DNA of 64,000 nucleotides, taken from contig JAUNVR010000004.1 of NCBI GenBank assembly GCA_030537595.1, positions 4,761 through 68,760 of the forward strand, in the 5' to 3' direction. The notes under the pieces were generated by a model. It was given only the letters and a program-made list of their open reading frames with translations, was not told the DNA's origin and searched no databases. How positions within the stretch are numbered: position 1 is the stretch's first letter; every line of letters starts with the position of its first letter. Origin of the DNA: Eubacteriales bacterium (GTDB lineage Bacteria > Bacillota > Clostridia > Saccharofermentanales > DTU023). Below, one piece after another: positions 6,680-59,015 of the stretch. A program made the translations under genes and the position numbers.

Positions 6680-7561
6680 CTATAACCTCCGACTCATTCG
6701 CTTTTTACGCAGTGTACTGTGAGTGCCGATAACAATTGAAACAAGTGTGATTAGCGACAGCACAAAGACAATAGAAGCTCCGTTCGGCCAACCTAATCTG
6801 CCAAGTAGCGTGCCGAGGAAGGCAGAGACTACACCTGTCACCGCAGCGACCCTTAAGACGCCGCGGAAAGAACCCTTCCATTGTAAGCCGGCGACAGTTG
6901 GCGCGATTAGTAAGGCGGCAATCAGAATTGCACCGACGACACGTAGTCCGGTTGCAATCAGCGCGAGGATTAAAATCAGCGTAATCTGATGGACTAAGTC
7001 TGGCTTGAAGCCGGTCACATCGGCGAAGCGATCATCAAAGATTGAAAGCTGAATCTCCTTATAGAAGATAAAGAAGAGAATAATCGTAAAGATCGCAACC
7101 CCGATAATCATGTACAAGTCTTTTCTGGCAGCCAGGGCAGCTTGACCGAAAATATAGGTTTCTAGTCCAGCCTTAGGCACCTGACGGTAGTGGGGGTGGC
7201 TTTGGATTACGCTCTTCAAGGTAATACCCAGGCCAAAAAATGATGATAAAACAATGGCTTGAGCACGGTCCAGGTCAGCCTTATCAGGGCCGGCCAAATA
7301 CTCGATTAAACGGTATGCAATATAGCCGAAAACCATCGCGCCGAGCATTAGAACCCAGGGAGCTCGAGTTAAAAAGAGCATAAAAGCGAGCATGACTCCG
7401 GGTAGTGAGGCGTGACCGATGGCATCACCAATTAAACTCTGTCCTCGAAGAACTGAAACTGAGCCGACCAGAGAGGTTGCCAAAGCCAAAATCATTGCCG
7501 ACAAGGCAGGAACCCAGAAGTTGATATCTCTTAACATTGCGGTCAATTCAGTTAGGTTCAT
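6680..7561 (-). CDS. Metal ABC transporter permease, ABC-3 family (TroC/MntC-like)
   Basis: The 293-aa product is a polytopic membrane protein with the motif GDAIGHASLPGVM. It abuts the next permease gene and overlaps the ATPase gene by 4 nt. Confidence 0.85.
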   Translation of the reverse strand: MNLTELTAMLRDINFWVPALSAMILALATSLVGSVSVLRGQSLIGDAIGHASLPGVMLAFMLFLTRAPWVLMLGAMVFGYIAYRLIEYLAGPDKADLDRAQAIVLSSFFGLGITLKSVIQSHPHYRQVPKAGLETYIFGQAALAARKDLYMIIGVAIFTIILFFIFYKEIQLSIFDDRFADVTGFKPDLVHQITLILILALIATGLRVVGAILIAALLIAPTVAGLQWKGSFRGVLRVAAVTGVVSAFLGTLLGRLGWPNGASIVFVLSLITLVSIVIGTHSTLRKKRMSRRL

Positions 7562-13794: not shown

Positions 13795-13871
13795 GGGTGC
13801 TTAGCTCAGCTGGTTAGAGTACTTGCTTGACATGCAAGGGGTCACTGGTTCGAGTCCAGTAGTACCCACCA
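13795..13871 (+). tRNA. tRNA-Val (anticodon GAC), CCA encoded
   Basis: I folded the cloverleaf by hand. The acceptor pairs GGGTGCT/AGTACCC. The anticodon stem is CTTGC/GCAAG with loop TTGACAT. The T-arm is ACTGG-TTCGAGT-CCAGT. Confidence 0.95.
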
Positions 13872-45519: not shown

Positions 45520-45596
45520 GGCGGCGTAGCTTAGTTGGTCAGAGCATCCGGTTCATACCCGGAGGGTCGTAGGTTCGACTCCTACCGCCGCCACCA
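45520..45596 (+). tRNA. tRNA-Met (anticodon CAT, elongator type), CCA encoded
   Basis: The acceptor pairs GGCGGCG/CGCCGCC. The anticodon stem is TCCGG/CCGGA with loop TTCATAC. The 1:72 pair is intact and there is no GGG/CCC anticodon stem, so it is not an initiator. The loop is unlike Ile2 (CTCATAA). Confidence 0.85.
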
Positions 45597-45599
45597 GAC

Positions 45600-45674
45600 G
45601 GCCCGTTGGTCAAGAGGTTAAGACATCGCCCTTTCACGGCGGAGTCAGGGGTTCGATTCCCCTACGGGTCACCA
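45600..45674 (+). tRNA. tRNA-Glu (anticodon TTC), CCA encoded
   Basis: It is nearly identical to the remembered B. subtilis tRNA-Glu (GGCCCGTTGGTCAAG.GGTTAAGACA.CGCCCTTTCACGGCGG...ACGGGTCACCA). It starts 3 nt after tRNA-Met. Confidence 0.95.
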
Positions 45675-45677
45675 GAT

Positions 45678-45707
45678 AGAAGACTCAGCGGTGGCGCTGA
45701 GTCTTCT
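45678..45707 (+). other. Perfect 13-bp hairpin with a GTGG tetraloop between tRNA-Glu and tRNA-Val
   Basis: agaagactcagcg (45678-45690) pairs with cgctgagtcttct (45695-45707). No clear U-tract follows. Confidence 0.5.
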
Positions 45708-45715
45708 TGCCTTTA

Positions 45716-45792
45716 GGGCATTTAGCTCAGCTGGTTAGAGCACCAGCTTCACACGCTGGGGGTCGTAGGTTCGAGTCCTATAGTGCCCACCA
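45716..45792 (+). tRNA. tRNA-Val (anticodon CAC), CCA encoded
   Basis: The acceptor pairs GGGCATT/AGTGCCC. The anticodon stem is CCAGC/GCTGG with loop TTCACAC. The T-arm is GTAGG-TTCGAGT-CCTAT. Confidence 0.95.
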
Positions 45793-47890: not shown

Positions 47891-49171
47891 CTACTTGATT
47901 TCACAGTAGGGTGGAGTCTTATCTGCTAACTCCAGGAGTACGAAGGCTAGGTTATTGATATTTCTGCTCAGTAAATCAATAGCCTCATCTGGCTCTTCAT
48001 TGTTGTCGCGCGCAGCTTGATTTTGCTCACTTGTGTTGACTGCAAAGTGGGGCAGCAGAATCTGGGTCGAGTCAAAGCCGGATCCGGCAATCCTGCCTCC
48101 GGAGGCATTAAAGAAGGGGTCAGTACTTTCGCGGAAGCTTTGCTGCTCGCTGTTAAAGTCATACTGACCGGATTGAATGAAGACTATTGGATAGCCTGCC
48201 CGGTCAAAGACGCTATGATCACTTTCCACGAGGGTCCACTCCCGGTAGAGAACGGGGATGCCGAGGCTAGGATGAGTGACTTTTTCAGTTGATTGGTTGG
48301 TGTAAATTGCAAAGTTATTGTGGGTTAAGAGCAGATTATTATAGTAAATATCTGTGACCTCGTAGAGTTTCCGCCGCAGGGCATAGTTTTTACTATGCTC
48401 GCCGGTGACCGAGTTTTGCCCAGCGTGAGCATAGATCTTATCTCCAGCGTAGATATTACTGAGATTGACCACGCAGTCAGTTAAGTTTTTATCTTCAGCA
48501 CTTAGGGTGCTAAGTAAAGCTGACGCTCCAGCATAATCGCTATGCCCAGCGCCCAAGAGAACGAGGACGATATCATAGGCTGTTTGATGGCTCTTTAACT
48601 CTTTAGCCAAGCTTAAAAGTACAGCTACAGCGGCACTATTGTCATGGATGCCGTCTGCCTGATTGAAATTTGGCAGAGCGGGACTGCGTTCGCTGAGGGC
48701 CAAGTATTCACTTTCTGAGGCATAGCTATCGTAGTGAGCCATGATGTAGAGTTTTCGCCCACTTAGCTCTGCAGGTGGACGTTGGGAGTCCAGGATGCTG
48801 CTATTTGGATCGTAGTTCGACTCTAGCTTGAAGCCCCGGCCGGGGATTTTGATAATCAGGTTTTGTGACTCTGCCTGCTGGCCGGAATTTAAATAAAATG
48901 AAAAGGGCTGCAGCTCAACCTGGTAGCCGAGTCCTTCAAAAGCCGCTTTAATTAATTCTGCGGCTTGCCTTTCCCCACTGCTGCCAGGGCCTCTTTGCGG
49001 GACTGAACGTGCCAGCTCAACAGCAAAGTCAGCGCCGAAACTACCATAGCGGGCGGGCTTTGCTTCAGCTTCGCTGTCGTGGTGGGAGCAGCCGCTGAAG
49101 ACAAGGGAGAGTGAGATTAGCAAAGCTAAAAGATAGCAGAGTGAAGTTCTTTTTCTGATCACAGGAAACAT
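47891..49171 (-). CDS. M28-family peptidase-like lipoprotein (active-site residues apparently degenerate)
   Basis: The lipoprotein signal MFPVIRKRTSLCYLLALLISLSLVFSGC starts at ATG 49171. The M28 blocks MAHYDS, DNSAAVAVLLSLAKEL and SDHSVFDRAGYP are present. The usual EE pair appears replaced (LGAGHSDYAG). Confidence 0.65.
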   Translation of the reverse strand: MFPVIRKRTSLCYLLALLISLSLVFSGCSHHDSEAEAKPARYGSFGADFAVELARSVPQRGPGSSGERQAAELIKAAFEGLGYQVELQPFSFYLNSGQQAESQNLIIKIPGRGFKLESNYDPNSSILDSQRPPAELSGRKLYIMAHYDSYASESEYLALSERSPALPNFNQADGIHDNSAAVAVLLSLAKELKSHQTAYDIVLVLLGAGHSDYAGASALLSTLSAEDKNLTDCVVNLSNIYAGDKIYAHAGQNSVTGEHSKNYALRRKLYEVTDIYYNNLLLTHNNFAIYTNQSTEKVTHPSLGIPVLYREWTLVESDHSVFDRAGYPIVFIQSGQYDFNSEQQSFRESTDPFFNASGGRIAGSGFDSTQILLPHFAVNTSEQNQAARDNNEEPDEAIDLLSRNINNLAFVLLELADKTPPYCEIK

Positions 49172-49178
49172 TCCTCGT

Positions 49179-49637
49179 TTATTTATTCTTAGTAAAAGGG
49201 ACGAAACAACAGCCGCGACGTAAGCAGCTGAACCAGGCGCAGAAGCAGCAGAGCTGACGTAGACAGCCCGAGTCGATTTGCGAGCTGTTACTTTTATTCC
49301 AGGAGGTCCAGTTGGCACCACGCGCGGAATTTCGACTATCCCTTGCGGAGGCTTGGCCTCTGTCTTGATAGCGCTCAGAGCTTGAGCCAAAGGGGCTACG
49401 GCTCTCTCGACTAGCTTCTTCTGGGAAACTCGAGGCGCCGGTAAAACGGTCAGAAGTCAAGGCGTCATAGGCAGCGTTTAACTCATCCGTGTAGCGTTCG
49501 GAGAGTTGAATCATGCCCGGATCCTTGTACTGACTGGGGTCATATTCTGCCAGTAACTCTAGATAGCGTTGCCGAATTTCTTCGGTACTGGCATCTTCAG
49601 CTAAATTTAAATAATTAAGTGCATCTTTCCGATCCAT
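49179..49637 (-). CDS. J-domain-like protein lacking the HPD motif
   Basis: ALNYLNLAEDASTEEIRQRYLELLAEYDPSQY...ELNAAYDAL follows the J-domain helix II/III pattern, but HPD reads DPS. The ATG at 49637 lies 6 nt after GAGG. Its stop lies 7 nt before the M28 gene start. The C-terminal half is compositionally odd, so the 3' boundary is uncertain. Confidence 0.5.
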   Translation of the reverse strand: MDRKDALNYLNLAEDASTEEIRQRYLELLAEYDPSQYKDPGMIQLSERYTDELNAAYDALTSDRFTGASSFPEEASRESRSPFGSSSERYQDRGQASARDSRNSARGANWTSWNKSNSSQIDSGCLRQLCCFCAWFSCLRRGCCFVPFTKNK

Positions 49638-50532
49638 TTTCAACCTCGTAATCTTGCCAAACTCTATTCATTGTAACACTTTGTTCTTGGCTTTTTTTAA
49701 AGACCTCGGCACGCGAACTAGGGAATGAGCTCAAGATTAGCTGCCTCAGTAGTAGAGTCTGCCTCTGAAAGGGCAGGAGGGCAGCATGGCGGCGTAATTC
49801 AGCTTCTAAATCGAGGATTCTAGCAGGCAGGGCCTGGAGCTCTTCAGAATTCAAATGATTGAGGTAGTTATCACGAGCACGGCGCCGGTCTTTGACCTCG
49901 TCATCGAGGGCGTCGAGTAGGGTAATCCATTCACCTAAGGCAGCCCCGATGCGATAGGCGGCTTCTTCGATCGGGTGCAGTCCCTCTGCGGCGAGGGCTT
50001 TAAAATAGGGGTCAGGGCTGGGCTTTAATTTTTTCGCAGCAAGCTTAAAGAGCTCACCCATCAATTCGCCAAAGCGCTCAACCAGCCCCTCTAGGCTAGC
50101 TTCGTGATCGTAAGCTTCGATTAGAGCCGCAGCCTCCGGCCAGCTCCGGCGCGCCGCTTCAACTTGCCGCCCGATGAGGAGGGCAGATGCCCCGCTGGCT
50201 CTTAGTCTTTGACCGTCTGCTCGATCGTCTTCAATCTTGGCCGCAAAGAGTAAGGGTGAAAGGGTCGCTGCTAGGTCTGTAAAGCGCGTTCTCCGGGCCT
50301 TGGGCCGCTGGATTGAGGGCAGTGGGCAGGCCGCATTCATGACTAGCTCAGCTTCGCTATCTAGAGCGCTAAAAAAGATTGCGAAAAAACACAAGTCGTA
50401 GGATAGCAAAAAGCGGTAACGCAGCTTTCCGAGCTCGCCGAGAGCCAGACAAAGTCCGCAGTAGTACTCTGAATAACTTCGCTCTAAATTTTCTTCTGCG
50501 CTTGTAAAGACTGGCCTAGTATATCCAAACAT
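49615..50532 (-). CDS. Uncharacterized protein, DUF5685-like (MFGY...YYCGLC N-terminus)
   Basis: The 305-aa ORF has the N-terminal pattern MFGYTRP...YSEYYCGLCLALG...RFLLSYD. I recall this as the hallmark of a Firmicutes DUF that is usually found next to a J-domain gene. This assignment is not verified. Confidence 0.55.
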   Translation of the reverse strand: MFGYTRPVFTSAEENLERSYSEYYCGLCLALGELGKLRYRFLLSYDLCFFAIFFSALDSEAELVMNAACPLPSIQRPKARRTRFTDLAATLSPLLFAAKIEDDRADGQRLRASGASALLIGRQVEAARRSWPEAAALIEAYDHEASLEGLVERFGELMGELFKLAAKKLKPSPDPYFKALAAEGLHPIEEAAYRIGAALGEWITLLDALDDEVKDRRRARDNYLNHLNSEELQALPARILDLEAELRRHAALLPFQRQTLLLRQLILSSFPSSRAEVFKKSQEQSVTMNRVWQDYEVENGSERCT

Positions 50533-50607: not shown

Positions 50608-52086
50608 ATGATGATAAAAGAACAGCTTTGTCGCACCCGTTTTGCACCCAGTCCTACAGGCTTTATGCATATCGGCAACTTACGTTCAGCACTCTATGCC
50701 TATCTTTTGGCTAGAGCAAAACATGGTAAGTTCATTTTGCGAATTGAAGACACCGACCGCGCGCGTCTAGTTGAAGGTGCGGTAGATAAAATTTATTCGA
50801 GTCTTGAAATTTGCGGTTTAGATCACGATGAGGGTCCAGATATTGGCGGCCCCTATGGTCCTTATGTGCAGAGCGAGCGCAAAGATCATTACCTGCCCTA
50901 TGCGCAGGAGCTAATTGACAAATCCGAAGCCTATTATTGTTTCTGCTCGAAGGAACGCTTGGAGGCTTTAGCAGAAAGTGGCCAGATTGGTTATGACCGA
51001 CACTGCCGTGACCTGAGCCCGGAAGAAGTCGAGGCTCGGCTCGCCAAGGGTGAACCATATGTGATTAGGCAAAAGATGCCAAGTAGTGGCAGCAGCGAGT
51101 TTGTCGATGAAGTTTTTGGCCGTATTGTAGTTGATAATAAAGAGCTTGAAGACCAGGTTTTAATTAAGTCTGACGGCTATCCCACCTATAACTTTGCCAA
51201 TGTTATTGATGACCATGAAATGGGGATTACTCATGTCTTGCGTGGCAGCGAGTATCTGTCCTCGACACCGAAGTACCAGCAGCTATACCGGGCCTTGGGT
51301 TGGGCTGAACCAGCCTATGTTCACCTCCCTTTAATTCTCGGCGAAGATGGTAAAAAGCTCTCTAAAAGGCATGGAGCGACCTCCTTGGAAGACTTATTAG
51401 AGGCGGGCTATTTGCCGGAGGCAATCGTCAATTACATCGCCTTCCTCGGCTGGTCTCCAGGTGGCGATACTAGAGAAATCTTTAGCTTAGAGGAGCTCTG
51501 CGAGCACTTTAGCACTGAGCATATCAATAAGGCACCTGCAGTCTTTGACTACAATAAATTAGCCTGGGTCAATGGGCAGTACATTGCAGCCTTAAGTCCT
51601 GAGGAATTCTTGGCCGCAGGGCAAAGCTGGTTAAAAGAAGCCTATAGCGGCTTAAATTCGGAGAATGAAAAAATCCTAGCGGAGATTCTCGGCAGCCGGA
51701 TCCAGAGCTTTTCCGAGATTCCGGAAAAAATTGCCTTCTTAGAAGCTAGACCAGCGCTGACGGCTGAGCTCTTTTACAATAAGCGGCAGAAACTCGATTG
51801 CAATTTGAGCCTTAGGGTTCTGGAGGAGATCTTGCCTGAGCTGGAGAGCTGGACTGAGTGGGAGCGGGAGAAAATCCATACTTACCTGATGAGCTTACCG
51901 GAGCAGCTCGGGCTGAAAACTGGTCAGGTGATGGGTCCGCCACGCCTAGCTTTGGCCGGACAGAAGGTCACCCCAGGTGGTGCAATTGAAATAATGATGA
52001 TTTTAGGCCGTGAGGAAAGCTTAAAGCGCCTCCAATCGGCTGTCGAATTCCTAACAGAGGAGTCCAAAAATGGCAGAGATGACTAA
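50608..52086 (+). CDS. gltX: Glutamyl-tRNA synthetase
   Basis: The HIGH motif is PSPTGFMHIGN and the KMSKS motif is KLSKRHG. The second ATG at 50611 has better spacing to GGAGG. Confidence 0.9.
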   Translation: MMIKEQLCRTRFAPSPTGFMHIGNLRSALYAYLLARAKHGKFILRIEDTDRARLVEGAVDKIYSSLEICGLDHDEGPDIGGPYGPYVQSERKDHYLPYAQELIDKSEAYYCFCSKERLEALAESGQIGYDRHCRDLSPEEVEARLAKGEPYVIRQKMPSSGSSEFVDEVFGRIVVDNKELEDQVLIKSDGYPTYNFANVIDDHEMGITHVLRGSEYLSSTPKYQQLYRALGWAEPAYVHLPLILGEDGKKLSKRHGATSLEDLLEAGYLPEAIVNYIAFLGWSPGGDTREIFSLEELCEHFSTEHINKAPAVFDYNKLAWVNGQYIAALSPEEFLAAGQSWLKEAYSGLNSENEKILAEILGSRIQSFSEIPEKIAFLEARPALTAELFYNKRQKLDCNLSLRVLEEILPELESWTEWEREKIHTYLMSLPEQLGLKTGQVMGPPRLALAGQKVTPGGAIEIMMILGREESLKRLQSAVEFLTEESKNGRDD

Positions 52087-53740
52087 TAATTTTATTCACG
52101 ATTTTATCGTTGAGGATATCGCAGAAGGTGGGCAGTACGAGGGGCAAAGAGTCCATACCCGCTTCCCACCAGAGCCGAATGGCTATTTACATATCGGGCA
52201 CGCCAAGGCGGTCTGCTTAAACTTTGCTACGGCTGCAAAGTTTAATGGCCTATGTAATTTACGAATGGACGATACCAATCCGGTCAAAGAAGATGAGCAG
52301 TATATCGAAGCAATTAAAGAAGATATTCACTGGCTCGGCTTTGATTGGGAGGATCGCTTTTATTACGCTTCTTCCTACTTTGAAGAAATGTACCACTACG
52401 CTGAAGAACTGATTGAAAAAGGCCTTGCCTTCGTCTGTGAGATGTCGGCCGAGGAGATTCGTAACTCACGTGGTACTTTAACCGAGCCCGGCAAGCCCTC
52501 GCCCTGGCGCGATCGTCCGATTGCTGAGAGCTTAGACCTCTTCCGCAGAATGCGCGCGGGCGAGTTCCCCAATGGGGCGATGAGTTTAAGGGCAAAGATC
52601 GATATGAGTTCGGGCAATATCAATATGCGCGACCCTGTCATCTTTAGAATTGCTCATGAGAGCCATCACCAGACTGGTGATGAGTGGTGCATCTACCCGA
52701 TGTACGACTTTGCCCATCCCTTGGAGGACGCAATCGAGGGTATCACTCACTCCCTGTGCTCACTGGAGTTTGAGGATCACAGGCCGCTTTATGACTGGGT
52801 GATCGAAAACTGCTCGGTGCCACATATTCCGCGGCAGATTGAATTTGCTAGACTCAATTTAGAGCACTGCGTCATGAGTAAGCGCTATCTTAGAGAGCTG
52901 GTCGAAAGTGCCCAGGTTAGTGGCTGGGATGATCCCAGAATGCCGACTCTTTGTGGTTTAAGACGTAGAGGTTACACCCCGCAGGCAGTGCGGAACTTTA
53001 TTGATCGGATAGGCGTCTCCAAGGTTGACAGTTTAGTCGCCTATGAATTCCTCGAGTTCTGCCTCCGTGAGGACTTAGATGCTAACGCAAGACGAGCCAT
53101 GGTTGTGAAGGAGCCGATTCAACTGATCATCACGAACTATCCTGAAGGACAAAGTGAAAAGCTAAAGGTTTCCAATCACCCGAAGCGTCCAGAATTAGGC
53201 GAGCATGAGGTCACATTCTCGAAGCGTCTGTGGATCGAGGCAGAGGACTTTAAGATTGATCCGCCAAAGAAATATCACCGCCTCTTCCCAGGCCAGGAAG
53301 TGCGCCTGCGTGGAGCATATATTGTGCGCTGTACCGGCTATGAGGAAAAGGATGGGGAGCTCATCGTATACGCAGAGTATGACCCCGAAACAAGAGGTGG
53401 CACGACTCCGGATGGCCGGAAAGTTCGCGGCACAATTCACTGGGTCGACCAAGCCACAGCAGCGGACTGCGAGCTGAGAATTTACGACAAATTATTTACT
53501 GAGCAAGATCCGAGCGAGTTAATCGGAACTGATGAGTTAAAGATTAATCCTGAGTCTTTGACCGTGGTTAAAAATGCCAAGGCAGAGGCATATTTGGTCG
53601 AGGATGCGGCAGCCGAGCCAGGGCATCGCTACCAATTCATGCGCCAAGGTTACTTCGTGGCAGATTCAGTAGATTTCACTAAGGCAGAGCCGGTCTTCAA
53701 TCTGGCAGTAGGCTTACGGAGTAGTTATAAACCAGAGTAG
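52070..53740 (+). CDS. glnS: Glutaminyl-tRNA synthetase
   Basis: The motifs RFPPEPNGYLHIGHAKA and VMSKRYL are present. The length is 556 aa. It overlaps gltX by 17 nt. Confidence 0.9.
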   Translation: MAEMTNNFIHDFIVEDIAEGGQYEGQRVHTRFPPEPNGYLHIGHAKAVCLNFATAAKFNGLCNLRMDDTNPVKEDEQYIEAIKEDIHWLGFDWEDRFYYASSYFEEMYHYAEELIEKGLAFVCEMSAEEIRNSRGTLTEPGKPSPWRDRPIAESLDLFRRMRAGEFPNGAMSLRAKIDMSSGNINMRDPVIFRIAHESHHQTGDEWCIYPMYDFAHPLEDAIEGITHSLCSLEFEDHRPLYDWVIENCSVPHIPRQIEFARLNLEHCVMSKRYLRELVESAQVSGWDDPRMPTLCGLRRRGYTPQAVRNFIDRIGVSKVDSLVAYEFLEFCLREDLDANARRAMVVKEPIQLIITNYPEGQSEKLKVSNHPKRPELGEHEVTFSKRLWIEAEDFKIDPPKKYHRLFPGQEVRLRGAYIVRCTGYEEKDGELIVYAEYDPETRGGTTPDGRKVRGTIHWVDQATAADCELRIYDKLFTEQDPSELIGTDELKINPESLTVVKNAKAEAYLVEDAAAEPGHRYQFMRQGYFVADSVDFTKAEPVFNLAVGLRSSYKPE

Positions 53741-55585: not shown

Positions 55586-56770
55586 ATGTTACAAGGAATT
55601 CACTGTAGAGGTTACGCCATACTCGAGGACTTTACCCTCGGTCTCAGCTGGGCGCAGCTCAAAAAGCTACACAGCCTGGAGGAGGCCTTGGCAGAACCGC
55701 GTTTACAAGCTTTAACCTGCCTGATCGGGCGGGCCTCGACTGGGAAGACCTCGGCCTTTGAAGCCTTGCGCTTTATTTCCGAGAGCTTAAAGCAGGGTGT
55801 GCCAGAAGCTGCCTCAGCGCTGAGTGATGAGGGTTTCGCCTCAATGCTAAGCTACAACGGCAATGATCAGATGCACTTTGCCCTAGTCTTTTACCGCGAG
55901 AAAGAGGCAGATTTTTTAAACTATCAGATTCTGATTAAAGCAGATCGCTATGGACGGCCCCGAGTGGCGGCTGAAGAGGTCATTCATGGAGCTTATCTTG
56001 ATGGTAGCTTCGTGGAGACCCAATTACTCCAACATCAAGATGGCGAGGGTAGGGTCTATTCACAAAACTTTGGGGCTGCAGAAATCAATTTATTAGAGGT
56101 CAAAATGCCAGCCCTGAGCCTATATGGACGCTTTTTGCAGTATCCTGAGCTCTGCTGGCTGTACCTGTCAATCACCCGTTGGTTTATCACCTCCGGCCCC
56201 TTTGAGCTAAAGCGGATGCCGGCGCGTAAAATTGATGGCATCAACCGCCATCTAACCAGTGATTTTGAAAACGCGACCAATGTCCTAGACTACTATGAGG
56301 CCAGAGATCGTGAGCAGGGGCGAGCAGGGGCAACTGTGCAGAGAATTCTCGAGAAAATGCCCGACTTCAAGTTAACCGGAGATATTCGCCTCGACCGAGA
56401 ATTGACCTCAGGTAATTTAAAACTCTTTCTTTACTACTTACTTTTAGAAGATAATCGTCCTCTAATCTGTCTCGATGGCCCGGAACTCGGACTATACCAT
56501 GAGCGGGTCGAGGACCTAGTCACGGAAATGCGGATCTACTTGGATGTCGAGTTAGGTGCGCAGATTTTCCTTTCATCCCACAGCACTGTTCTACTCGACA
56601 CGCTAGCGCCGGCCGAAGTCTGGCTCCTCGAGAGGAAGCGCGAGGCTGGTGCAGATAAAGCCCTAATTCAGGCCCGCTGGCTCGGTTCAGATGACCTGAT
56701 CCAAAAAATGGCAGAAGAAGGAATTAGCTTAGGCAGTCTGTGGTATAGCGGGCACTTGGACTTTCAATGA
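55586..56770 (+). CDS. ABC/SMC-type ATPase (AAA_21/COG4637-like), first gene of a two-gene module
   Basis: Readable motifs are Walker A LIGRASTGKTS, signature-like LTSGN, Walker B PLICLDGPE (Gly where the catalytic Glu is usual) and H-loop FLSSHSTVLLD. The C-terminus reads LGSLWYSGHL. Confidence 0.75.
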   Translation: MLQGIHCRGYAILEDFTLGLSWAQLKKLHSLEEALAEPRLQALTCLIGRASTGKTSAFEALRFISESLKQGVPEAASALSDEGFASMLSYNGNDQMHFALVFYREKEADFLNYQILIKADRYGRPRVAAEEVIHGAYLDGSFVETQLLQHQDGEGRVYSQNFGAAEINLLEVKMPALSLYGRFLQYPELCWLYLSITRWFITSGPFELKRMPARKIDGINRHLTSDFENATNVLDYYEARDREQGRAGATVQRILEKMPDFKLTGDIRLDRELTSGNLKLFLYYLLLEDNRPLICLDGPELGLYHERVEDLVTEMRIYLDVELGAQIFLSSHSTVLLDTLAPAEVWLLERKREAGADKALIQARWLGSDDLIQKMAEEGISLGSLWYSGHLDFQ

Positions 56771-57492
56771 GAAGCATAGTAGTTCTAACGGAGGATCGCT
56801 CTTCGGTGCCGACCTTGGAACGCATCTTTGAGCTTATTCTCGCCGAAACTAAGCTGGCCTGTAATTTAGAAATCTACTTCCACCGGGGTAGGGGGCATTT
56901 ACCGAAGAATTTAGCAGCAAGTCCGAATCCTCGGGCAAGCTCTCTCTTACAAGTCTTCCCGGCCAAATTAAGAGCCTATGCAGCAGCGACTGAGCCGGAG
57001 GAAGTACTGCTGGTCGTCGTGCTCGATTCTGATGACTCAGATGTCGACGTGCTTTACGGTCGCCTGGTTGAGTGCTACCGGCGCTTTGCCCCGCGGCACG
57101 TCTACTGTATCGGGATTGCAGTTGAAGAGTTCGAGGCCTGGCTTTTAGGCGACATCGAGGCTTTAAGCCGAGCTTATCCTGATTACAATAAGGAAGCATA
57201 TGCTAGCTACGAGCAGGATGCCATCGTAGGCACCTGGGAAATTCTAGCCAAGGTAGTTCATGCTGCTGGTGCTGACCGCCTAATCCGCAATGCCTACCCG
57301 GCAGTCGGAGCCTATAAAATGCGCTGGGCAGAAAATATATCCCCATTTTTAGAATTAGATAGCAACCGTTCAGAGAGCTTTAAGCGTTTTATTCAACATA
57401 TTCGCCGCAGCCTAGTTTTTTGGACTGAGCGAATTGAGGCGGCAGGAGAAGTCCCAGGAAACTTTCCCTCCGAGGAGGAGGGGGAGAGTTAA
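56767..57492 (+). CDS. Toprim-like / DUF4276-like protein, second gene of the two-gene module
   Basis: It has an ATGA overlap with the ATPase gene. It carries SIVVLTEDRS, an acidic cluster VVVLDSDDSDVD, and EEFEAWLLGD (the EAW motif I recall for DUF4276). The length is 241 aa. Confidence 0.6.
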   Translation: MRSIVVLTEDRSSVPTLERIFELILAETKLACNLEIYFHRGRGHLPKNLAASPNPRASSLLQVFPAKLRAYAAATEPEEVLLVVVLDSDDSDVDVLYGRLVECYRRFAPRHVYCIGIAVEEFEAWLLGDIEALSRAYPDYNKEAYASYEQDAIVGTWEILAKVVHAAGADRLIRNAYPAVGAYKMRWAENISPFLELDSNRSESFKRFIQHIRRSLVFWTERIEAAGEVPGNFPSEEEGES

Positions 57493-57494
57493 AG

Positions 57495-58886
57495 ATGAGC
57501 TCAGTCCTGCCTGAATCCGGCCTGGGTCTAACAGAGGCCCTGGCTTTAGCTGACCGCGGCTTGTCTTTAGAGAGCCTGGGCCTTGCAGATGCCCTCTATA
57601 TTCACGTCCCCTTCTGTGCGAAACGCTGCTATTACTGTGACTTTTATAGTCAGCTTCCAGCCAGCGGCGACTTAAGGCAGTATGAGGAGGCCCTCTTAAA
57701 TCACTTGCTTGCGCTCTTAGCTTGGCTTGAGCAAGAGGGCCGGGAGCCGAGCTGGGGCTTCGACACAGTTTACTTTGGCGGAGGAACGCCCTCGCTCTTA
57801 AGTGCTAAGTTTTATCAGCGCTTTTTCAAGATTCTGGCTCAGGCAAAGGCCTTAAAAGCCGAGGCAGAGATTACGGTTGAGGCAAATCCCACTTCCTTAA
57901 GTGCAAAGCTGGCCAGCGCTCTATATTCCGCAGGCGTAAACCGCCTCTCTCTTGGCCTACAGACTAGTTCTCAAGCAGCCTTGAAAATCCTTGGCAGAAT
58001 CCATGACTTCGAGGGCTTTTTGCGCGCTTTAAAAGCAGCTAGGGCTGCTGGGTTCAAGCGGATCAGTACAGATTTAATCTATGCCCTGCCAGGTCAAACC
58101 ATGGCAGATTTCAGGCTCGATTTAGAGCGGCTATTTGCACTCGAACTTGAGCATTTTTCTGCCTATTCTTTAATCCTAGCCGAGGATACCCCCTTTTATC
58201 GCTGCTACGTCGAAGGGGATAACTATTTAAAGCTGCCCGAATTACCGACTGAGGACTTAGAACGGGAGTTTTATTACGAGCTCAAGAAAGCTGCAGCAGA
58301 ACATGGCTACAAACATTATGAAATTGCGAGCTGGGCTCAGCCTGGGGCAGAATCTAGACATAATAATAAATACTGGAAATTACTACCCTATTTCGCACTA
58401 GGGCCAGCAGCAAGTGGTTTTTACCGTGGCTGTCGCTACCGCTTCCCAGAGGATTTAAAGGCTTATCTTGAATCTTGGACTGAGCCTAAATCGGGACTAG
58501 ATTACTGGCATGGCGCAAGCTTAGATGAGTGCCTGACGGCTGAGACGGAAGCAAAAGATTATCTATTCCTAGCCTTTCGCCGCATGTGCGGAGTTTCAGA
58601 AGCTGAGTATCGGCTGCGCTTTGGCCGTGACTTAGAAAAGGACTTCGGCCCCGAGCTGAAGAGCCTGAAAGCGCGGGCCTTGATTTATGACTATGAGGTG
58701 GAAAGAAGATCTGAGTCCTTAGTCCAAGCCCAAGCTAGTTCGAGTGAGAGCCTAGCCCCAGTGGAATCAGAGCAAAAGAAGCTCTTACTTGAGCCTAATC
58801 CTAAGCCCCTAAAGAAAGATCGCCGCTGGGCCCTAAGTAGCCTGGGTGAGGACTTTGCAAACGAAGTTTTCCGGGAATTTATCTAG
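57495..58886 (+). CDS. hemW: Radical SAM heme chaperone HemW (oxygen-independent coproporphyrinogen oxidase-like, HemN family)
   Basis: YIHVPFCAKRCYYCDF carries the CxxxCxxC motif, and GGGTPS is present. It sits upstream of hrcA as in Bacillus. The ATG lies 2 nt after the preceding stop. Confidence 0.85.
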   Translation: MSSVLPESGLGLTEALALADRGLSLESLGLADALYIHVPFCAKRCYYCDFYSQLPASGDLRQYEEALLNHLLALLAWLEQEGREPSWGFDTVYFGGGTPSLLSAKFYQRFFKILAQAKALKAEAEITVEANPTSLSAKLASALYSAGVNRLSLGLQTSSQAALKILGRIHDFEGFLRALKAARAAGFKRISTDLIYALPGQTMADFRLDLERLFALELEHFSAYSLILAEDTPFYRCYVEGDNYLKLPELPTEDLEREFYYELKKAAAEHGYKHYEIASWAQPGAESRHNNKYWKLLPYFALGPAASGFYRGCRYRFPEDLKAYLESWTEPKSGLDYWHGASLDECLTAETEAKDYLFLAFRRMCGVSEAEYRLRFGRDLEKDFGPELKSLKARALIYDYEVERRSESLVQAQASSSESLAPVESEQKKLLLEPNPKPLKKDRRWALSSLGEDFANEVFREFI

Positions 58887-58988
58887 TATTTTGTCTATCT
58901 TTGACTAATTCGGAAAAAGTTCACAATTCTGTGACATTACTGTCTAATTCAGCAATTGACAGCCCTCTATAATCCGTACTAAACTAAC

Positions 58989-59015
58989 TTAGCACTCAGG
59001 ACATACGAGTGCTAA
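58989..59015 (+). promoter_or_regulatory. CIRCE operator (HrcA binding site)
   Basis: TTAGCACTC-aggacatac-GAGTGCTAA is a perfect match to the consensus TTAGCACTC-N9-GAGTGCTAA. It lies 23 nt upstream of the hrcA ATG. A TATAAT hexamer lies at 58968-58973. Confidence 0.9.

Follow-up and report, generated by a model that had tools for sequence, protein, structure and literature searches.

A hemW-linked subfamily of HEC-01-type ATPase and DUF4276 gene pairs in Clostridia

Hma-embedded candidate 01 (HEC-01) has been described as an ATP-binding cassette (ABC) ATPase paired with a TOPRIM-like protein and residing within Hma defence loci (10.1101/2024.01.29.577857). It is among the more abundant "candidate" defence systems, with no known mechanism and with contradictory phage assays: Payne et al. 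saw no protection by HEC-01 in E. coli assays (10.1101/2024.01.29.577857), whereas a cold-seep study reports one HEC-01 representative that shielded E. coli B from one or more of the phages T4, T5 and T7 (10.1101/2024.09.26.614923). The DUF4276 and RloB families have been classed as new Toprim members in the Menshen paper, where Mad4 of the MADS system is a DUF4276 homologue (PMC12065111), and the AAA15/21 tree of the PARIS paper in Nature includes DUF4276 partners (PMC11464382). Here we describe an HEC-01-type pair of open reading frames, ORF1 and ORF2, directly upstream of hemW in a 64,000-nt stretch of DNA (the window) from contig JAUNVR010000004.1 of an Eubacteriales bacterium. The type of pair is known already; what is specific here is a vertically inherited, hemW-fixed subfamily with an altered ATPase site.

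Identity of the pair and related systems

ORF1 (55586..56770, + strand) encodes a 394-aa ABC ATPase of the AAA_21 family and of the HEC-01A type in PADLOC. ORF2 (56767..57492, + strand) encodes a 241-aa DUF4276 protein of the HEC-01B type, a Toprim-like putative metal-dependent nuclease. The two genes are adjacent and co-directional, and an ATGA stop/start overlap read from the sequence (56767..56770, + strand) suggests translational coupling. Relatives vary at this junction, with anything between 4 nt of overlap and a gap of 26 nt. An earlier reading of the same DNA by eye, the preliminary description, had placed both genes and the overlap exactly, and the motifs that it quoted are all present (LIGRASTGKTS, LTSGN, PLICLDGPE and FLSSHSTVLLD in ORF1; SIVVLTEDRS, VVVLDSDDSDVD and EEFEAWLLGD in ORF2).

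Both family assignments are well supported by profile matches. ORF1 matches Pfam AAA_21 with 56.8 bits (cut-off 27, E 4.9e-15) and ORF2 matches DUF4276 with 33.0 bits (cut-off 30.2), each far above chance, and DUF4276 is matched by 20 of the 21 ORF2 homologues aligned. These are the families that had been named from the ABC landmarks of ORF1 and, for ORF2, from its "EAW" motif and size. In PADLOC, the HEC-01A model PDLC04182 matches ORF1 with an E-value of 1.5e-52 (176.9 bits), as do several further HEC-01A models, and the HEC-01B model PDLC04205 matches ORF2 with an E-value of 2.6e-60, aligning residues 4-214 to model positions 3-211 of 213. With HEC-01 models on both proteins and phage assays in print, the earlier view of an ATPase/DUF4276 pair as lacking any experimentally defined role is outdated. 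We also observed that PDLC04144, labelled HEC-01B, matches the ATPase (2.6e-22) and that PDLC04143, labelled HEC-01A, matches the DUF4276 protein (2.3e-12); the A/B labels of these two models appear to be swapped.

The pair resembles HEC-01 in its strong model matches, its two co-directional genes, its predicted ABC ATPase fold and conserved acidic metal site. It differs in place and in detail: HEC-01 is found in mobile or variable places, while the subfamily of the window is fixed at hemW, descends vertically, lacks an 18-residue segment of the ATPase and has often lost the catalytic Glu.

Several other systems share parts of this architecture. The AlphaFold2 (AF2) model of ORF1 is confident (pLDDT, a predicted score for the local distance difference test, 89.7; predicted template modelling score, pTM, 0.90) and gave 124 Foldseek matches in the PDB at E≤1e-3, the best of them the OLD nuclease of Thermus scotoductus (6p74, 5e-10), followed among the top matches by Septu and retron PtuA ATPases, GajA, and SMC/cohesin heads. 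The ABC ATPase assignment holds at the level of fold as well. A structural comparison with AriA, OLD and GajA had been proposed earlier; OLD and GajA were matched, and AriA was not within the top 50 fold matches in the PDB. PDB sequence and profile searches returned no match for either ORF1 or ORF2.

Like Mad3/Mad4 of MADS, the pair joins an AAA-type ATPase to a DUF4276 protein (PMC12065111), but the NCBIfam MAD3 equivalog matches ORF1 with 22.4 bits against a cut-off of 420, and no methyltransferase or other MADS gene lies near the pair, whose neighbours are housekeeping genes. PARIS likewise encodes an ABC ATPase and a small Toprim-type nuclease as separate genes, and control of the nuclease by an ATPase scaffold would be a plausible analogy (PMC11464382). 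However, AriB belongs to DUF4435 and ORF2 to DUF4276, with no AriB or DUF4435 match for ORF2 in PADLOC or Pfam at E≤1, and the AriA model matches ORF1 mainly over the generic stretch from Walker B to the H-loop (residues 271-338). For AbiL, there are weak AbiLi model matches of ORF1 (5.6e-9), and RloB is the family that ORF2 and its relatives weakly touch most often, yet ORF2 has no significant AbiLii/RloB match and belongs to a different Pfam family. The OLD nuclease 6p74 and GajA of Gabija are close to ORF1 in fold, but ATPase and Toprim are fused in OLD and GajA and split into two genes here, and no helicase (GajB) is found among the neighbours of the pair. Septu PtuA and retron-associated PtuA-like ATPases make up the majority of the 50 best fold matches to ORF1 (E 1e-9 to 1e-7); their sequence identity to ORF1 is 10-13%, and the partner PtuB is an HNH nuclease rather than a DUF4276 protein. 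RecF and RecR are a precedent for a vertically inherited housekeeping pair made up of an SMC-like ABC ATPase and a protein with a Toprim domain, although RecR has no nuclease role. The likeness is purely one of analogy, and no RecF or RecR sequence or model match turned up in any search. Membership in PARIS, AbiL, Gabija, fused OLD or MADS was rejected on the defining features of each, and the MANTIS preprint proved unrelated to ATPase/DUF4276 modules. Of the proposal that this is a PARIS- or AbiL-like defence system, what stands is the analogy of an ATPase with a nuclease and the existence of mobile and defence-linked relatives; membership in either system does not.

Descent of the pair and its active sites

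The pair lies directly upstream of hemW-hrcA-grpE-(clpP)-dnaK-dnaJ-prmA in all nine lineages recovered by a pair-based search: that of the window (L001) and those of loci L002, L137, L006, L011, L007, L013, L017 and L134, the last from a Saccharofermentans sp. The hosts are Clostridia metagenome-assembled genomes labelled Eubacteriales, Oscillospiraceae or Saccharofermentans. These lineages are far apart, with 40-50% identity to the window for ORF2 and 29-56% for ORF1, and with DnaK 68-75% identical between the main pair-bearing groups. In each of the nine, the ORF2/hemW junction falls between a 14-nt overlap and a 2-nt gap. In the window, hemW (57495..58886, + strand; a radical SAM heme chaperone of 463 aa) starts with an ATG 2 nt past the ORF2 stop, and its Shine-Dalgarno sequence lies within the 3′ end of ORF2. 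The upstream neighbours come in two different arrangements, gltX-glnS-NfeD-SPFH or nrdR-...-recG-rsmD-coaD followed by an unknown gene, and the conserved linkage is therefore that to hemW. The flanks of the window had been described correctly, with NfeD and SPFH upstream and hemW-hrcA-grpE-dnaK downstream. The HEC-01 hallmark of embedding in a defence or mobile locus is absent, the pair being placed between SPFH and hemW in the window and abutting or overlapping hemW in every lineage. The term "orphan", used for the pair in the preliminary description, does not fit a hemW-linked pair that co-diverges with hrcA, grpE and dnaK. A compositional island was rejected as well, as the GC content of the pair (0.48-0.52) shows no anomaly against the flanks (0.44-0.53).

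The pair has diverged in step with its downstream neighbours. When matrices of pairwise identity are compared, ORF1 and ORF2 track the mean of HemW, HrcA, GrpE and DnaK with Pearson coefficients of 0.94 and 0.88, as good a correlation as these four proteins show with one another. In neighbour-joining trees (500 bootstraps) of the hemW-linked sequences and four free or mobile homologues, the split between linked and free sequences has 100% bootstrap support with the concatenated pair, with ORF1 alone and with ORF2 alone. The pair tree has four deep splits (each 100%), and every one of them returns in the HrcA+GrpE+DnaK+HemW tree with 94-100% support; only shallow branches differ. In a HemW tree with 20 pair-less outgroups, eight of the nine pair-bearing HemWs form one clade (87%) and no pair-less HemW is nested among them. 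A database of 5.8 billion proteins holds 5 HemW clusters (≥46% identity), 5 ORF1 clusters and 5 ORF2 clusters for the nearest subgroup, an indirect test of loss that covers this subgroup only. Judged from these sequences, the hemW-linked subfamily is clearly monophyletic with respect to the free and mobile homologues and has evidently been inherited vertically.

Both genes are also well conserved. Between L007 and L013, the proportion of nonsynonymous differences (pN) is 0.15 for ORF1 and 0.16 for ORF2 compared with 0.29 for HemW and 0.22 for GrpE, at saturated synonymous sites (pS 0.70-0.77); within lineages, counts of single-nucleotide polymorphisms were too low to inform on selection. Neither ORF contains a frameshift or stop codon in the nine lineages. 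Purifying selection on the pair is evidently at least as strong as that on HemW and GrpE.

At E≤1e-3, an exhaustive HMMER search yields 476 representative clusters for the wider family. Since a gap in score follows the top 12, the hemW-linked type is a small subfamily (about 12 of the 476 clusters). Relatives at 33-39% identity occur in mobile, defence or variable contexts, and such contexts were seen only at ≤39% identity. Examples of these include a homologue that adjoins AbiEi/AbiEii (L010), a homologue within a variable region (L015), a homologue carried as cargo on the Pseudomonas conjugative plasmid pGLE121P3 with type IV secretion genes on one side and the relaxase on the other, a homologue between the antiterminator and lysis genes of a Rahnella prophage, and four IMG/VR viral contigs with complete homologous pairs. 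The preliminary description had held that strict conservation with hemW, with the pair never in variable or defence regions, would speak against a defence system. The subfamily shows the first; the distant relatives contradict the second.

The ATPase site of the subfamily departs from that of its free relatives in several places, as seen in a comparison of 19 hemW-linked clade sequences with 8 free or mobile homologues. The nucleotide-binding elements are kept. The Walker A/P-loop GRASTGKTS (residues 48-56; 55727..55753, + strand) contains G48, G53 and K54, invariant in 21 homologues and likewise in all 27 clade and free sequences, and the H-loop region QIFLSSH (Q326-H332; 56561..56581, + strand) contains the invariant Q326 and H332; the Walker A Lys and H-loop His are present in 8/8 free and 19/19 clade members. 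In the Walker B region PLICLDGPE (residues 292-300; 56459..56485, + strand), D297 is the Walker B acid, and Gly298 (56477-56479, + strand) occupies the catalytic-Glu position that follows it. ORF1 of the window (D297-G298) thus lacks the Glu by which an ABC ATPase is judged competent for hydrolysis. That residue is Glu in 8/8 free homologues, within (I/L)EEPENGLYH, and in P2 Old (FIDEPE), whereas in the hemW-linked clade it is Glu in 10 of 19 sequences and Gly, Thr or Ser in the other 9. All 8 free or mobile homologues carry an 18-residue segment just upstream of the signature motif that has been deleted from all 19 sequences of the clade. The motif table of homologues places the ABC signature-like LTSGN at residues 273-277 (56402..56416, + strand). 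The signature reads MSDGT in free homologues, (T/E)SGN in the group of the window and SP(N/D) in a Saccharofermentans-type group, where it is combined with a change of Glu to Thr after Walker B. Additionally, the C-terminal motif is WYS(D/E/K)Y in 7 of the 8 free homologues and WY(S/G/A)GH in 18 of the 19 clade members. In SMC and Rad50 "EQ" mutants, which lack this Glu, ATP binding and head engagement remain and hydrolysis is blocked. We infer that ATP hydrolysis is dispensable across much of the hemW-linked clade.

The putative nuclease site of ORF2, by comparison across 21 homologues, is intact. Glu9 (56791..56793, + strand), right after strand β1 at the Toprim motif-1 position, is nearly invariant. 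Asp87-Ser-Asp89 (57025..57033, + strand), a DxD that ends strand β3 at the Toprim motif-2 position, has both Asp residues invariant. The "EAW" motif of DUF4276 corresponds to the acidic cluster Glu120-Glu121-Phe-Glu123 after strand β4 (57124..57135, + strand); there E121 and E123 do not vary, and E120 is nearly invariant. The AF2 model of ORF2 (pLDDT 92.1, pTM 0.87) has a β-α-β-α-β-α-β core with strands at residues 3-8 (β1), 33-38 (β2), 80-87 (β3) and 113-118 (β4). This core, a Glu after β1 and a DxD after β3 are what define the Toprim layout, with which the acidic residues and strand order predicted for ORF2 are consistent. Matches beyond the layout are weak. Foldseek against the BFVD placed an RloB-like protein at rank 2 (E 2.5e-3, template modelling score about 0.37). 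With hhalign, the β1-Glu and a G-x-G at β2 fall in register with the Toprim region of P2 Old, Glu9 opposite its LLVEG motif, in an alignment that is statistically weak (P=0.005, probability 7%). Pfam RloB is touched by 1 of the 21 homologues (E=0.04). Phage and plasmid collections, searched for sequences from which to build an OLD-Toprim profile, yielded P2 alone. The motif layout and these weak matches are consistent with the earlier description of ORF2 as Toprim-like, for which the published classing of HEC-01B and DUF4276 (10.1101/2024.01.29.577857, PMC12065111) is the further ground; no solved Toprim structure was matched.

The 21 homologues, when aligned, favour the ATG at 56767 as the genuine start codon of ORF2. 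In the public (Logan) gene call P0001, ORF2 is a 228-aa protein that starts at an internal GTG, 13 codons late (window 56767-56805; L001 10001), and so lacks strand β1 and the conserved Glu9. Owing to this late start, full-length ORF2 gives no hit when looked up by exact sequence.

Possible functions of the pair

The pair is evidently of the HEC-01 type, coupled to hemW, with a remodelled ATPase site and an intact putative nuclease site. For its function we favour domestication over a core-genome system that is still immune, with entrenchment or addiction and a decaying relic behind both. That the pair is a domesticated HEC-01 derivative with a constitutive, lineage-wide function and a nuclease gated by nucleotide binding is, in our judgement, evenly balanced. 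A more specific form is put forward tentatively: an HEC-01 module was captured once at hemW in a Clostridia ancestor and exapted as a housekeeping factor (e.g. a nucleotide-gated nuclease for RNA/DNA processing or quality control), expressed together with hemW beside the heat-shock operon, for which ATP hydrolysis became dispensable.

Under domestication, the pair would have entered the chromosome once out of the mobile HEC-01 pool and then been domesticated. ORF2 would be a Mg2+-dependent nuclease that is restrained, then released or activated, by ORF1. In the hemW-linked subfamily, ORF1 would serve as a nucleotide-binding switch and not as a hydrolysing motor, a proposal made because the Walker A Lys and H-loop His are kept, the 18-residue segment is lost and the catalytic Glu is replaced in about half of the clade. 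The role would have shifted from accessory anti-phage cargo to nucleic-acid surveillance or processing, with expression shared with hemW.

A number of observations weigh against domestication. The nine lineages were found through the pair, which makes the count of nine of nine ascertainment-biased, and two scans for presence or absence are uninformative on losses of the pair: a genome-contig scan with the HemW of the window returned only distant pair-less HemW loci (≤39% identity), which we used as outgroups, and a metagenome scan that used SPFH as its anchor gave 80 NfeD-SPFH loci, all from other lineages and none with hemW or the pair downstream. On losses, only the indirect cluster counts of 5, 5 and 5, which cover the nearest subgroup, and the HemW tree have a bearing. 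The divergent Saccharofermentans HemW (L134) falls outside the HemW clade of the pair-bearing lineages. With the catalytic Glu still in place in 10 of the 19 sequences of the clade, loss of hydrolysis cannot be ascribed to the subfamily as a whole. No Toprim protein is among the PDB matches of the ORF2 model in Foldseek, the best match having an E-value of 0.011, and the predicted Toprim fold is thus not confirmed by solved structures. Intact nuclease residues with a retained ATPase partner fit active defence equally well, and the pair could stay in place through its coupling to hemW for reasons of expression alone.

The strongest competitor is that the pair is still an anti-phage HEC-01 system, of an abortive-infection type similar to PARIS or OLD, in which the ATPase would sense phage and unleash the DUF4276 nuclease on DNA or tRNA from a stable residence in the core genome. 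We consider this a strong contender, though less likely than not. The strong HEC-01A and HEC-01B model matches, the relatives in prophages, viral contigs and a plasmid and beside AbiE, the invariance of the putative catalytic residues of ORF2, and the structural proximity of ORF1 to OLD, PtuA and GajA all speak for such a system. Defence genes turn over rapidly, and co-divergence of the kind seen here is atypical of them. The pair instead keeps strictly to its place and diverges together with the genes of the dnaK operon, even between lineages with DnaK proteins only 68-75% identical; it shows no diversification and a slower evolution than HemW and GrpE; and it carries an eroded catalytic Glu and signature and a subfamily-specific deletion in its ATPase. 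The published assays point both ways, with one representative active against phage (10.1101/2024.09.26.614923) and HEC-01 unprotective in the other test (10.1101/2024.01.29.577857).

The pair could also be kept by entrenchment or addiction, either as a toxin-antitoxin-like module or because expression of hemW has come to depend on transcription and translation running through the pair, with deletions selected against. ORF2 and hemW overlap or abut in all lineages, the hemW Shine-Dalgarno sequence lies inside ORF2, no conserved promoter was detected upstream of ORF1 or between the pair and hemW, and the Pfam text for AAA_21 reads "putative AbiEii toxin, Type IV TA system". A need for expression alone would not conserve the proteins, however, and here the ORFs are intact, their key residues are invariant and pN is lower than for HemW. 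Addiction modules are mostly patchy and horizontally mobile, unlike this pair, which co-diverges with its host. We regard entrenchment as unlikely. That the pair is a decaying, inactive relic of an old insertion, as Gly298 at the catalytic-Glu position, degenerate signatures in part of the clade and the inactivity of HEC-01 in one assay (10.1101/2024.01.29.577857) might suggest, is highly improbable, as the conservation data argue strongly against it: nine lineages are free of frameshifts and stops under strong purifying selection, Walker A, the H-loop and all ORF2 acidic residues are conserved, and both structure models are confident.

The hemW-linked subfamily amounts to a natural experiment on the HEC-01 machine. 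Its acidic nuclease cluster, Walker A Lys and H-loop His would be the indispensable parts, and the catalytic Glu, the signature motif and the 18-residue segment would go with a mobile, presumably phage-sensing lifestyle. If the pair has indeed been exapted, it would stand as a clear case, in bacteria, of an immune module turned core gene, and PADLOC counts of "HEC-01" would include loci that are non-accessory and possibly non-immune. If the pair is still immune, it would be an unusually stable "core" defence pair in Saccharofermentans-like anaerobes.

Transcription signals and neighbouring genes

The heat-shock genes downstream of the pair have their own control region. A sigma-70-like promoter of the hrcA operon (TTGACA-18-TAAACT; 58956..58985, + strand) is followed in front of hrcA by a perfect CIRCE operator, TTAGCACTC-N9-GAGTGCTAA (58989..59015, + strand), which occurs as a single copy in the window compared with 0.03 expected by chance. 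CIRCE is also found between hemW and hrcA in L011, L013 and L017, and in Bacillaceae outgroups too. Because CIRCE and the promoter separate hemW from hrcA, the pair and hemW lie outside and upstream of the unit that HrcA controls. Upstream of ORF1 neither CIRCE nor a conserved promoter was detected, and joint heat-shock regulation of the pair by HrcA is therefore not supported. In L002, a terminator-like hairpin (GCCCCCGCACGGGGGC, then TTTTTT; 6796-6817) separates SPFH from ORF1 and stands only some 15 nt upstream of the ribosome-binding site of ORF1; the window showed no counterpart. Read-through of this terminator may be how the pair and hemW are expressed in that lineage.

The HemW of the window (57495-58886) is unusually long, at 463 aa compared with 382-426 aa in relatives; about 30 aa are added at the N-terminus, and an insertion lies close to the C-terminus. 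In the precomputed Pfam record of this protein Radical_SAM is the only entry and HemN_C is absent, unlike in almost all other HemW matches. Further downstream, Saccharofermentans-type lineages have clpP (CLP_protease, about 200 aa) between grpE and dnaK in the heat-shock operon (L007 11693-12298; L013 11682-12287; L017 11798-12403; L134 12956-13558), an arrangement not seen in the group of the window.

In the second upstream context, a conserved protein of 157-164 aa is encoded between coaD and the pair (L007 6278-6763; L013 6264-6752; L017 6239-6712; L134 7429-7923). It has no Pfam match above threshold. A place for it as a third component of the system was considered and rejected, its only matches being weak and of coiled-coil type (DivIVA, RNase_Y_N, ATP-synt_B).

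In the first context, gltX (492 aa) and glnS (556 aa) stand in tandem at 50608-53740 of the window with a 17-nt overlap (52070-52086), and the genome therefore encodes both a discriminating glutaminyl-tRNA synthetase (GlnRS) and a glutamyl-tRNA synthetase (GluRS). Upstream of and divergent from these, according to the gene calls of L001, the minus strand at 47891-50532 encodes a Peptidase_M28 protein, a small protein with a weak DnaJ match and a DUF5685 protein; the DnaJ-like gene and DUF5685 are found at the same place in L002 and L137, and Peptidase_M28 in L002 as well. Rfam matches at the gathering threshold in the window consist of four tRNA genes only, one at 13795-13868 and three clustered at 45520-45789.

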